A stretch of 22,380 bases of DNA from Promethearchaeota archaeon (GTDB lineage: Archaea > Asgardarchaeota > Thorarchaeia > Thorarchaeales > Thorarchaeaceae), in the NCBI GenBank assembly GCA_048939765.1, contig JBHLPF010000019.1:3754-26133 (forward strand). Direction: 5' to 3'. Numbering within the stretch: position 1 is the stretch's first letter; each line of letters starts with the position of its first letter. The position numbers were made by a program, and so were the translations under genes. Below the pieces are notes generated by a model. It made no database searches and was not told the DNA's origin. It saw only the letters and a list, made by a program, of their open reading frames with translations. Of the stretch, positions 19,193-22,380 are shown piece after piece.

Positions 19193-20494
19193 CTAGTTGA
19201 AACGAAGGTACTTCGATATCTCCCAAGGTGTCACTCCTGAAACGCCAGGGTTTCCAGTCGCCTCAACATAATCTGCCCATTCTGCAGTTCTCATTTTGAC
19301 AATCATATCTACCAGACTCTTGCCCAACGCATCAACAATGACTTCATCGCGCTGAAGCCTCTCAAGGGCCTCACCAAGACTGCCTGGGAGGGACTTGGTT
19401 TCAGTTGCTGTCTTGTATAGGTTCTCCCTAGTCGGTTCTGGCGGAGTCAATCCTCTCTCGATTCCATCCAGCCCCGCCGCAAGAGTTGCTGCAATAGCTA
19501 AATGCGAACTGCATAATGGATCTGGGCATCTGAATTCGATTCTAGCCTTCACATCAGACCCATTGTATTGTGGGACTCTGATCATTGTAGACCTGTTTCT
19601 TGGGCCCCATGCAATCTTTGTTGGAGCTTCATACCCGGGAGTTAGCCTCTTGAATGAGTTCACCGAGGGGGCAACTATCGCAGCAAGTGCTTCAGCATGT
19701 TCAAGGACTCCGGCTACATAGCTTCCTGCTAATTCAGATACTTCTCCTGATTTGCTACTTGAGAATAGGTTTATTCCTTCATCAACACTCCATAGACTCT
19801 GATGAAGATGCATGCCGCTCCCATTCATACTACTGAATGGCTTTGGCATGAATGTTGCAATTGCTCCAATTTCATGTGCCATCTCTGCAATAAGAAGTCT
19901 GGCTAGCATTATGTTATCGGCTGCATTAATAGCGCTACCAAATCTGAGCCCCACCTCGTGCTGCCCTGCCGCCACTTCATGGTGATGGGTTGTTGTAGAT
20001 ATGCCGATAGAGCCTAATGCCTTGGCCACTCTTCTTCTAAACTGCAAACCTCCATCAGTGGGAAGGGTTGAGAAATAGCCACCTCCATCCCCGGGTACTA
20101 TTGCGCCTCGCCCGTTTTCCATGACTAGAAAGAACTCGAGTTCTGAACCAACTCTCAACTCAAATCCGGCTTCCCTAGCTGAATCAGTGATTTTAGTAAG
20201 CACGCTAGAAGGATCTCTTGGGTGGGGGTCTCCGGGTGCCCGGAAAACCCCGCAAACCAAGACCGCCACATCTTTTTCCCAAGGAAGAGTAATTGGGCGA
20301 GATGATCGTGGTTTCAATAGGAGATCAGAGCTATTGACCGACGCATATCCAGGGACTGAGGAGCCGTCGAAGTAGACGCCATTCTTCATGACGTCATCAT
20401 AGTCCTCGAATGCAATTTCGATGCTCTTCGTGGCTCCCAAGACTGTACTGAACAGCAGCCTCAGGAAGTCTGGTCGGTCGTGTGTTTCTCGCAT
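19193..20494 (-). CDS. glnA: Glutamine synthetase type I
   Basis: FDGSS, ELEFFL, GGYF, HHEVAAGQHE, FMPKP, NGSGMHLHQS, KRLTPGYEAP, NRS..IRVP, RIEFRCPDP. Start at ATG 20494, about 25 nt below a CTTATA box, so probably leaderless. Confidence 0.9.
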   Translation of the reverse strand: MRETHDRPDFLRLLFSTVLGATKSIEIAFEDYDDVMKNGVYFDGSSVPGYASVNSSDLLLKPRSSRPITLPWEKDVAVLVCGVFRAPGDPHPRDPSSVLTKITDSAREAGFELRVGSELEFFLVMENGRGAIVPGDGGGYFSTLPTDGGLQFRRRVAKALGSIGISTTTHHHEVAAGQHEVGLRFGSAINAADNIMLARLLIAEMAHEIGAIATFMPKPFSSMNGSGMHLHQSLWSVDEGINLFSSSKSGEVSELAGSYVAGVLEHAEALAAIVAPSVNSFKRLTPGYEAPTKIAWGPRNRSTMIRVPQYNGSDVKARIEFRCPDPLCSSHLAIAATLAAGLDGIERGLTPPEPTRENLYKTATETKSLPGSLGEALERLQRDEVIVDALGKSLVDMIVKMRTAEWADYVEATGNPGVSGVTPWEISKYLRFN

Positions 20495-20499
20495 TTTAT

Positions 20500-20524
20500 C
20501 TTTAGAGCTAAAGGTCAGTATAAG
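20500..20524 (-). promoter_or_regulatory. glnA promoter: TATA box plus palindromic operator
   Basis: Minus strand GGAAAT-C-CTTATA, then CTTTAG-N2-CTAAAG (20500-20513) just before the ATG. Confidence 0.5.
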
Positions 20525-20576
20525 GATTTCCGGCAGAAAGCAGAAAGTATTTCTACATTCTTCCACATAATCCAGA

Positions 20577-20627
20577 ATATCCGAAGAACTTACGGAATTG
20601 ATGCGCATGTCCGAAGGAATTACGGAA
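20577..20627. repeat. Two 21-bp direct repeats (TCCG-N9-CGGA cores) 30 bp apart; putative Lrp operators
   Basis: ATATCCGAAGAACTTACGGAA (20577-20597) and ATGTCCGAAGGAATTACGGAA (20607-20627), 18/21 identical. Confidence 0.65.
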
Positions 20628-21110
20628 AAGATTGATAAGACGGATGTGAAAATACTCGACCTTCTTCAACATGATGGCCGGATGAGTGTGTCGGATATTT
20701 CCAAGAACGTTGGCAAGGGAATCTCCACAGTCCACGCACGCATCGGGAATCTAAGGAAGAGAGGAATCATTGACCATTTCACAGCTGTCCTGAATCCTGC
20801 GAAACTTGGCCGTCCAACCTTGGCTCTCATCCTCATCACTATCCGCTACAGAGTCCCGGGAAGTAGAAAGGTCATATCTCAACGCGAGTTCTGTGAAGAA
20901 ATAGCTCAGCATCCATTCGTGCAAGAGGTTCATGTTCTCAGTGGAGAGTTTGATGTACTCTTAAAGGTAAGAGCCAAGGATGTTCAGGAGATGAACAGTT
21001 TCATTGTTGACTCGCTTCGCGAGATGCCTGCAGTTGATCGGACTCTTACGATGTTCGCCATGGACACTTATCTTGACACTCTGATGCTTAGAAATATCCA
21101 GAAAAAGTGA
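20607..21110 (+). CDS. Lrp/AsnC family transcriptional regulator
   Basis: IDKTD.KIL..LQ.DGR.S...IS, STVH.RI..L...GII wHTH; V.EVH.LSGEFDVLLKV RAM domain. Start among 20598/20601/20607. Confidence 0.95.
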   Translation: MSEGITEKIDKTDVKILDLLQHDGRMSVSDISKNVGKGISTVHARIGNLRKRGIIDHFTAVLNPAKLGRPTLALILITIRYRVPGSRKVISQREFCEEIAQHPFVQEVHVLSGEFDVLLKVRAKDVQEMNSFIVDSLREMPAVDRTLTMFAMDTYLDTLMLRNIQKK

Positions 21111-21167
21111 ATGTACGATAATGGGGAATAATGTACAGAGATGGGCAGCTTTAAATAGAGAAGCTGC
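21110..21167 (+). promoter_or_regulatory. trpB2 leader promoter with TATA box, flanking inverted repeat and TGTAC repeats
   Basis: TTTAAATA 21150-21157; GCAGCTT (21145-21151) / AAGCTGC (21161-21167); AATGTAC repeated at 21110 and 21130. Confidence 0.55.
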
Positions 21168-21202
21168 ACGCAATGGATAACCCTTTCCAAGGTTGTGAAA
21201 CG

Positions 21203-21253
21203 ATGAGTGTGCGTTATTACCAATGGTTCATGGGCCGAGAGAGGCCCACTTAG
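21203..21253 (+). CDS. Putative leader peptide MSVRYYQWFMGRERPT (16 aa)
   Basis: GGTTGTGA RBS-like element 4 nt before the ATG; TAG TAA double stop; aromatic codon cluster; lies between a TATA box and trpB2. Confidence 0.55.
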   Translation: MSVRYYQWFMGRERPT

Positions 21254-21293
21254 TAACTATTCCATATATCGCACATTCAACGCCAGCACCGAC

Positions 21294-21300
21294 TTTTTTT
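21294..21300 (+). terminator. T7 tract in the trpB2 leader, putative conditional terminator
   Basis: Seven consecutive T 40 nt after the leader-peptide stop and about 90-100 nt before trpB2; oligo-T tracts are archaeal termination signals. Confidence 0.5.
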
Positions 21301-21403
21301 CCTGGAATTGTTGACTTGCAGTCTTTCAGACTGTGTCAGCTGCTTCCTCCCCCATGTCAGAGGAGAGGGCCTTTTGATATAACCAATTATGGAGAGATCA
21401 GAA

Positions 21404-22380
21404 TTGACTAGTAAAGTAAGTAGAATCCTGTTGGACCTAGATGAAGTACCAACCCATTACGTCAACATTCTGCCTCACCTCAAAGAGCCACTGGCCCCTC
21501 CCCTGAATCCAGGCACAGGAGAACCAATCGGTCCTGAAGCATTGATGGCTATCTTTGCTGTTGAGTGTGTGAAGCAGGAAGTGACGATGGAAAAAACAGT
21601 GCCAATACCTGATGAAGTCCGGGAGGCCTACATGATGTACGGTCGGCCCACTCCGCTTCAGAGAGCAGTTGGTCTTGAGACCGCTCTAAACACCCCAGCG
21701 CGTATCTATTACAAACGTGAAGACGTGTCGCCCACTGGTAGCCACAAGCTCAACACGGCGTTAGCACAGGCCTACTATGCACGAAACGAGGGTGTTTCCA
21801 GATATGCTACTGAAACTGGTGCAGGTCAATGGGGAAGTGCAGTATCTCTATCATGCGCTCACTTCGGGCTCAAGGCAATGGTCTACATGGTGCGAGTAAG
21901 CTTGGAGCAGAAAGGGTACCGTGGTACCCTGATGCGTTCCTATGGCGCAGAGATAGTCCCGAGTCCATCCGATAAGACGGAATTTGGTAGAAAGATAAGG
22001 TCCGAGAAACCAGATCATCCTGGAACACTGGGCATCGCGATTAGCGAAGCACTTGAAGATGCTGCAACCAATAATGACACGAAATACACGATAGGGTCCG
22101 TTCTGAACCATGTCCTGCTTCATCAGTCAGTCATCGGACAAGAAACAATCATTCAACTCGAAAAAGACGATCAGACGCCTGATGCTATCATTGGTTGCGT
22201 GGGAGGCGGTAGCAACTTCGCTGGTATAGCATATCCCTTCATTGCAGACGGTCGATTTGAGTCGACAGAGTTCATAGGTGTCGAGCCAACTGCCTGTCCT
22301 TCCATGACAAAGGGGGAATACAAGTATGACTTCGGTGACACTGCAGGAATGACCCCCATGATCAAGATGTACAGCTTGGG
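21404..22380 (+). CDS. trpB2: Tryptophan synthase beta chain, TrpB2 type (3' end runs off the window)
   Basis: Manual translation: [56 protein letters not shown] (PLP Lys), [49 protein letters not shown]. Start is TTG 21404 (GGAG RBS) or ATG 21389. Confidence 0.94.

Follow-up and report, generated by a model that had tools for sequence, protein, structure and literature searches.

Regulation of tryptophan (Trp) genes in archaea has been described in terms of DNA-binding regulators, of which only TrpY and Tar are named (PMC6737238), and little is known of archaeal Trp control apart from TrpY according to the same 2019 paper. In the work that this paper cites, TrpY represses the trp genes and trpB2 in Methanothermobacter (cited in PMC6737238). 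Amino-acid sensing by ribosomes on a leader peptide is described only for bacteria in searchable papers: full-text literature searches for archaeal leader peptides, attenuation, upstream open reading frames (uORFs) and termination gave no archaeal case, in agreement with a first-pass annotation of the DNA treated here, which had held peptide attenuators to be barely documented in archaea. We analysed a 22,380-nucleotide (nt) stretch of DNA, referred to as the window, from a Promethearchaeota archaeon of the family Thorarchaeaceae (contig JBHLPF010000019.1, positions 3,754 to 26,133 of assembly GCA_048939765.1). Its subject here is a 225-nt 5′ element, the leader of trpB2, a plus-strand gene of the PALP family that lies 3′ of the leader and encodes the type 2 beta chain of pyridoxal phosphate-dependent tryptophan synthase.

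The leader carries a short open reading frame (ORF) with a Trp codon, uORF1, and a second, longer frame, ORF2, whose start codon overlaps that Trp codon and whose stop lies on the first codons of trpB2 (Table 1). We propose a hand-over to ORF2 when a ribosome is starved at UGG; ORF2 would then carry ribosomes to trpB2 and so place the gene under the control of Trp supply, a reading that we hold with moderate confidence. Its specific form, a stall-triggered reinitiation in which the sensing codon overlaps the start of a second, Trp-free ORF and which would be the first leader-peptide control in archaea, is tentative and seems somewhat likelier to fail than to hold.

Conservation of the leader

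The regions upstream of trpB2 in 17 relatives, taken from the genus and the family, align across the leader. When one genome per prokaryotic species was scanned with a 28-nt core pattern, 15 archaeal matches were obtained, every one of them 165–193 nt before trpB2, together with as many bacterial matches as expected by chance. In a sample of 151 Asgard genomes, a covariance model of the 82-nt leader core (R1) matched 16 of the 26 other genomes of the same Thorarchaeota family. The genome of the window itself holds one credible copy; a second match (contig C48:31101-31180; 17 bits, E = 0.42) is only at chance level, so that the leader is neither a repeated element nor a general small RNA. Outside the family, R1 gave in the same Asgard sample one weak match (24.7 bits, E = 0.003), which lacks the P3 hairpin described below, has no trpB2 nearby and is read as chance. 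In one genome with two trpB2 paralogues (L167 and L170, 10.8 kb apart on the same contig), a leader precedes each. As judged from these searches, the leader is conserved before trpB2 in one Thorarchaeota family, with one copy per trpB2 gene and none elsewhere. No Rfam family matched positions 20900–21600 at E-values up to 10, and a scan for bacterial-type promoters and terminators returned no terminator-like site.

Two overlapping open reading frames

The first-pass annotation had listed a TATA box, a Shine–Dalgarno (SD)-like box, a 16-codon ORF, a run of seven T (T7) and several hairpins in the leader, and each of these is present where it had been placed. It had also suggested an alignment of relatives, in which the SD-led short ORF with its Trp codon proved to be conserved and the T-tract did not. 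Of 25 distinct leaders, 22 have an in-frame, open ATG at −21, −24 or −27 relative to TGG; two others start with GTG, and in one the start is lost. The SD-like box lies 5–10 nt before the start, and 24 of the 25 distinct leaders have an SD-led in-frame start. Out-of-frame ATGs are rare, and most of them run into a stop at once.

The frame is kept even where the peptide is not. A conserved SD-like motif, GAGCGTG, encodes Ser-Val-Arg in this genus but Arg-Ala-Cys in another group, owing to a 2-nt difference in the motif-to-TGG distance. With a motif-to-TGG spacing of 12 the uORF1 ATG sits at an offset of 2, 5 or 8, and with a spacing of 10 at an offset of 7, always in frame. Since the ATG shifts in this way to stay in frame despite insertions and deletions, selection is, by this comparison, acting on translation through the Trp codon and not on the N-terminal peptide of uORF1. 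The number of Trp codons is one here and one to three in the family, with at least one always kept; where the first TGG became TGT, a TGG is kept at the second position. The '4 aromatic codons in 5' pointed out earlier hold for this genome, and relatives read Cys, Ile, Asn or Ser there.

uORF1 ends at its canonical place always with TAG, never with TAA or TGA, within a conserved GTYTAG; this choice of TAG is demanded by neither the ORF2 frame nor any helix that we found.

A single conserved Trp and, in most lineages, a Pro two residues ahead of the stop recall TnaC, and the earlier annotation had drawn this likeness from the Trp and the terminal Arg-Pro. In such an arrest, the nascent uORF1 peptide would bind free Trp in the exit tunnel and block release at the stop codon. 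The spacing between Trp and stop is not kept, since three lineages have the stop shifted by +4 to +6 codons and a fourth has it just one codon beyond the Trp; the Pro is not the last residue and changes to Ala through a compensated change in the hairpin stem; and the two residues after the Trp vary freely. We therefore regard a TnaC-like arrest as highly improbable.

The second frame, which had been missed earlier, is ORF2. It is open for 57–75 codons in 24 of 26 leaders, and in 18 of 19 lineages no stop interrupts it across the leader. Each of the other two frames contains 0–5 stops, with a single case of none, and the chance of an open frame per leader, from shuffles, is 0.07–0.24. In 19 of 26 leaders the ORF2 stop lies −14 to +5 nt from the trpB2 start, and several leaders have ATGA or TTGA overlaps. 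In the window its TAG (21409–11) falls inside TTGACTAG, on codons 2–3 of trpB2. The position of an upstream ORF that ends within a few bases of a downstream start, by which translational coupling is recognised, is thus found in ORF2. The octamer TTGACTAG offers stops in two frames (TGA and TAG) beside the trpB2 start; the alternative stop is the one used in a relative that carries a 1-nt insertion.

Codon usage sets ORF2 apart from its neighbouring frames. It contains three TGG codons, compared with 12 and 18 in the other two frames and 11.4 expected (p = 0.002; because the compared lineages are related, this and the following p-values are optimistic). The overlap with uORF1 is equally constrained. 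The Gln codon before the Trp is never CAG, as follows from the requirement for the ORF2 ATG; it is CAA except in one genome, that with the two paralogues L167 and L170, where it has become a His codon (CAC) in both leaders and the ORF2 ATG is thereby removed. There, a TTG that lies two codons further on and overlaps the second Trp codon could serve as the start. In one of these two leaders the first Trp codon has in addition become Cys, and the second Trp codon and its overlapping TTG remain. In all 24 leaders that have the ORF2 ATG, the base after it is G, though G, U and C would be allowed.

We considered ORF2 as a real small protein and rejected this because its peptide is not conserved. 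After residue 15 the identity is 22%, with alignment scores like those of shuffles, and the first 15 residues overlap the RNA core. By these features, ORF2 seems to exist only to deliver ribosomes. The lineage that has no uORF1 ATG also has a shortened ORF2. This high-GC lineage (L050 and L166) keeps the RNA core, reads ACG in place of the uORF1 ATG, has TAG two codons after the Trp and ends ORF2 85 nt before trpB2; its leader looks like a decaying or rewired copy.

ORF2 could also be entered by a −1 frameshift at the hungry UGG, which would fuse the first seven residues of uORF1 with the ORF2 peptide. Several features recall dnaX-type sites: the invariant heptamer, a 5-nt spacer, the stable and covarying P3 hairpin, which falls within the 5–8 nt downstream at which a stimulating structure is placed, and the SD-like GAGCGTG motif 9–11 nt upstream. 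ORF2 also has no good SD of its own. Against this, the heptamer C CAA TGG is not a slippery X XXY YYZ, and the Gln tRNA would mispair at the middle position after the slip. Further, the A of the ATG is invariant though a slip needs none, and where the ATG is lost a TTG start stands two codons later. A −1 shift is less likely than a new start at the ORF2 ATG and is, in our estimate, decidedly unlikely.

RNA fold of the leader

Positions 21175–21405 fold at −78.2 kcal/mol, compared with −56.4 ± 4.5 kcal/mol for 200 dinucleotide shuffles (z = −4.81), none of which folds as well. The genus consensus consists of four helices, P1, P2, P2b and P3, and is 97.4% paired. P3 is 99.3% paired, with C-G replaced by U-A in 12 rows and G-C by C-G in one. 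Across genera, P3 and P2b together show 25 double-change cells compared with 7.9 in shuffles, a count reached in none of 500, and controls slid along the sequence collapse. An alignment-based search with MAFFT and RNAalifold recovered only P3 across genera, because insertions and deletions misalign P1 and P2, and was replaced by per-lineage duplex predictions with a permutation test. In this analysis each lineage has its own complementary pair at the places of the P1 and P2 arms, often of 10–13 bp and very different in sequence, and the arms of one lineage pair more strongly with each other than with arms taken from other lineages (permutation p = 5e-5 for P1, 2e-4 for P2). The covariation of P1, P2, P2b and P3 indicates that the fold is real. 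The 3′ stretch of P1 lies about 35 nt before trpB2, and since P1 extends in several other genera over the SD-like box of uORF1, the fold buries the uORF1 SD (P1), the start codon (P2) and the Trp codon (P2b).

The pairings that had been proposed for the leader can be placed within this fold. The 10-bp pairing of 21204–13 with 21270–79 is part of P2; the hairpin with arms 21231–36 and 21243–48 just after the Trp codon corresponds to P3, which covaries; and the long hairpin at 21310–40 is present and conserved in the genus only. The helix of 21213–19 with 21251–57 does not stand: it is 73.8% paired, 9–11 of 12 relatives break two of the seven pairs, and it does no better than shuffled partners.

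These pairings had been put forward as parts of a classical attenuator, in which stalling at Trp or aromatic codons selects between hairpins and decides termination at T7. A T7 is indeed present about 40 nt after the uORF1 stop, archaeal RNA polymerase is established to terminate at oligo-T, and a C/U-rich tract recurs at this place in relatives. Nevertheless, T7 is peculiar to this genome, and relatives read TTGTTTT, TTGTTCT or CTTCTTCT; of 26 distinct leaders, two have T5 or longer there, and six lack even a T4 anywhere. The conserved ORF2 spans the tract, and no covarying alternative pairing was found. With T7, the aromatic run, the terminal Arg-Pro and one helix not conserved, termination at T7 is unsupported, and we consider an attenuator of this kind very unlikely. 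The recognition of ORF2 moves the likely mechanism from hairpin-terminator attenuation to a translational relay.

Possible control of trpB2 by tryptophan supply

In the reading that we favour, a first ribosome would load on uORF1 during synthesis of the leader, as soon as uORF1 emerges. With charged tRNA-Trp present, it would reach the TAG and leave, and the RNA would close, first through P2, P2b and P3 and then through P1. In the closed RNA both leader starts would be buried and trpB2 would be translated at a basal level; the untranslated leader would possibly be open to premature termination, to which the C/U tract (T7 here) could contribute. When Trp is short, the ribosome would wait with UGG in its A site, 7–9 codons into uORF1, and a restart could take place on the overlapping ATG. 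The Trp-poor ORF2 would then be read through P2, the pyrimidine tract, P4 and P1 up to its stop on the trpB2 start, where reinitiation would follow. Expression of trpB2, taken as an indole-salvaging enzyme, would thus rise when Trp is short. The hand-over would require either drop-off of the short peptidyl-tRNA or rescue and splitting of the ribosome, followed by a local restart, because the stalled ribosome covers the ORF2 ATG. Both the mode of hand-over and the sign of the control are inferred, and the main argument for a sign in which starvation induces trpB2 is the depletion of Trp codons in ORF2.

Several points weigh against this reading. All the evidence is comparative and the organisms are uncultured. 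ORF2 has no clear SD of its own. A search for a third covarying pairing over all pairs of leader segments gave values of 0.015 (F-G), 0.023 (D-F) and 0.026 (C-F), none of which survives 21 tests. A switch that sequesters the trpB2 SD was tried by partition-function folding with the ribosome footprint at the Trp or stop codon held open, and was rejected, as the accessibility of the trpB2 SD was unchanged in most lineages; the 3′ tail folded alone likewise gave no consistent anti-SD pairing. Two further points, the geometry of the stalled ribosome and the constraints on the single Trp codon, each lead to an alternative.

The geometry suggests the opposite sign. A ribosome with UGG in its A site covers 21223–25, so that on the simple reading starvation would block the ORF2 ATG, and trpB2 would be translated only when Trp is plentiful, by ribosomes that finish uORF1 and reinitiate 28 nt upstream. 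Such a leader would be inducible, like the tna operon, and the function of a TrpB2 that stands without the other enzymes of the pathway is itself presumed. Backward reinitiation would, however, have to outpace the refolding of P2b and P3, a Trp-making enzyme is expected to rise in starvation, and the depletion of Trp codons in ORF2 makes sense only if ORF2 is read when Trp is short. On balance we judge the opposite sign unlikely.

The second alternative keeps the relay and removes the sensing: uORF1 and ORF2 would couple to trpB2, and the Trp codon would be a by-product of an ATG followed by G. The single Trp codon here could indeed arise in this way, the G being needed to pair in P2b. More generally, the Trp-codon positions of uORF1 share bases with the ORF2 start and P3, both of which constrain them, and the second and third Trp codons of relatives fall in the P3 stem. 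The signal would then come from a factor bound to the TGTACA-type boxes of the promoter (see below), which are conserved and could carry the Trp response, or from a ligand or protein that stabilises P1 or P2 and gates the uORF1 SD in the manner of a riboswitch; a closed multi-helix domain with invariant bases and covarying stems does resemble an aptamer, though no Rfam family matches. Without sensing, the Trp-codon depletion of ORF2 is left without a reason. Leaders that have lost the ATG still retain one Trp codon or more, and after the ATG only G is seen (24 of 24 leaders), though U and C are also allowed.

It also speaks against a by-product that other Asgard trpB2 leaders have uORFs with four Trp codons. 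At two Odin-type loci (L020 and L021) a uORF lies about 60–110 nt before trpB2, with four Trp among its last ten codons and a TAG stop. T6 tracts lie 3′ of this uORF, and the −1 frame, which has a TTG that overlaps a Trp codon, is open to about 22 nt before the trpB2 start. We rate a relay without Trp sensing as rather unlikely. A separate, hairpin-enclosed short ORF that starts Met-Pro-Trp is also found further upstream at L020 and L021.

The proposal of the first-pass annotation that a ribosome on a Trp-codon leader regulates trpB2 is thus carried forward in its conserved ORF, Trp codon and fold, and given up in its terminator output and aromatic enrichment. If hand-over from the starved UGG to ORF2 is true, coupled transcription and translation would be used for gene control in archaea too, and leader-peptide control would be found for the first time in archaea, in the lineage closest to eukaryotes, with no need of terminator hairpins. 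Such a hand-over would further reveal how archaea resolve stalled ribosomes and put them to use again. The compact two-ORF layout lends itself to experiment, as single synonymous changes separate the role of the Trp codon from that of the second start.

Promoter, gene model and genomic context

The TATA box lies at a position that is conserved as a TATA-like box at −39 from the model start in relatives. From the usual archaeal TATA spacing and this conserved promoter position, we infer a transcript start near 21178–21181 (about 21180), at the first base-paired stretch of the leader. Directly upstream stand two 20-bp units in tandem; both contain a TGTACA-type box and, after it, ATGGG. Nearly all lineages have two or three boxes of this type, phased by 10 or 20 bp and placed near −78, −68 and −58 relative to the model start, which are candidate transcription-factor sites. 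TGTACA is, as we take it, the consensus of the TRP box of TrpY in Methanothermobacter, and a DNA-binding layer of Trp control may stand above the leader. A TATA-like element near 21372, which had been named as a possible promoter of trpB2 itself, is conserved no further than the genus and falls within ORF2; the conservation of both the SD before trpB2 and the upstream promoter argues for the long leader over an internal promoter.

The start of trpB2 is more likely TTG 21404–06 than ATG 21389, the choice of the ORF finder, since one close relative has ACG at the position of ATG 21389 and others have ATG at the position of the TTG. A GGAG- or GGTG-type box is present 6–9 nt upstream of the TTG-equivalent start in all relatives. 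We rejected ATG 21389, and the gene model is corrected to begin at TTG 21404. The anti-SD sequence was taken from general archaeal knowledge, as no 16S rRNA gene was found in the assembly.

Searches for trpA, trpE and trpC found none in the assembly of the window, which is 88.5% complete; the same searches matched all 14 of 14 control genomes. As far as this assembly shows, trpB2 stands alone, as had been supposed, and is the sole Trp-making gene found. The host organism may therefore rely on external Trp or indole; trpB2 is then the single Trp gene found in an organism that otherwise depends on a supply of Trp. Upstream of the promoter, an Lrp/AsnC-family regulator gene (20598–21110, plus strand) has its 3′ end 40 nt before the TATA box, and a glutamine synthetase gene (19193–20608, minus strand) is divergent from it. 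The Lrp/AsnC gene adjoins the leader only in part of the genus (L001–L008) and is thus not an obligate partner of the leader.

Table 1. Features of the trpB2 leader and its surroundings, in window coordinates.
Feature	Position	Strand	Remarks
Two tandem 20-bp units	21110–21149	.	TGTACA-type boxes at 21112–17 and 21132–37; directly 5′ of TATA box
TATA box TTTAAATA of leader promoter	21150–21157	+	TATA-like box at same distance in relatives
P1 5′ arm	21181–21188	+	Closes whole leader domain; pairs with 21362–69
SD-like box GGTTGTGA of uORF1	21191–21198	+	5 nt before ATG
P2 5′ strand	21201–21217	+	Includes uORF1 start and first codons; pairs with 21266–82
uORF1	21203–21253	+	16 codons; ATG 21203, Trp codon 8 (TGG 21224–26), TAG 21251–53
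Heptamer CCAATGG	21220–21226	+	Nearly invariant; Gln and Trp codons of uORF1 and ORF2 ATG 21223–25
ORF2	21223–21411	+	62 codons; −1 frame of uORF1; ATG overlaps Trp codon
P3 hairpin	21232–21247	+	Stem 21232–36/21243–47; 5 nt after Trp codon
P2b and P2 3′ strands	21261–21282	+	P2b 21261–65 pairs with 21223–27 (Trp codon); P2 21266–82
Pyrimidine tract with T7 (21294–21300)	21291–21303	+	C/U-rich, no T run in other genera; inside ORF2
P4 hairpin	21310–21340	+	Conserved in genus only; inside ORF2
P1 3′ arm	21362–21369	+	Inside ORF2
trpB2 SD GGAGAG	21391–21396	+	7 nt 5′ of TTG
trpB2	21404–22380	+	TTG start; continues past window end

Comparison with known systems

The leader shares with translational coupling of the ATGA type (review PMC12548453) an upstream stop placed a few bases from the downstream start, within TTGACTAG here and as ATGA or TTGA in relatives. 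Unlike in that type, the upstream partner here is not a gene and its peptide is not conserved. With TrpY it would share the control of an archaeal trpB2 by tryptophan, and it has TGTACA boxes whose agreement with the TrpY consensus we presume. TrpY is, however, a DNA-binding repressor; it may act at 21110–49 here too, and would explain neither the leader ORFs nor the fold.

The eukaryotic uORF relays of GCN4 and ATF4 resemble the proposed one in that two upstream ORFs decide, in an amino-acid-dependent manner, on translation of the main ORF. Those systems scan, delay reinitiation and sense eIF2 phosphorylation, whereas the starts of this leader are either SD-led or overlapping, with a hungry codon as the proposed cue. 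In ermC and cat leaders and in the cysteine-responsive short ORFs of mycobacteria (bioRxiv 10.1101/834739), a ribosome held on the leader raises downstream translation with no terminator, which is the effect proposed here. There, the stalled ribosome melts one hairpin and frees the downstream SD; folding models show no such effect here, where the 150 nt from sensor to gene are spanned by a relay ORF of 62 codons.

There is also a likeness in layout to enterobacterial trpL (Rfam RF00513) and other bacterial leader-peptide attenuators, whose short ORF, led by an SD, carries codons for the end product and is set in pairings that translation disrupts, before the cognate gene. In contrast to trpL, this leader is archaeal, has one Trp codon (one to three in the family) rather than a tandem run, has no conserved terminator hairpin or U tract and matches neither RF00513 nor any other Rfam family; and its second ORF starts on the sensing codon and is positioned for coupling to the regulated gene. 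Because it has no terminator/antiterminator pair, U tract or Rfam homology, the leader is, as far as its sequence and covariation tell, not a member of the attenuator family; it resembles a bacterial attenuator in its sensor and translational coupling in its output.

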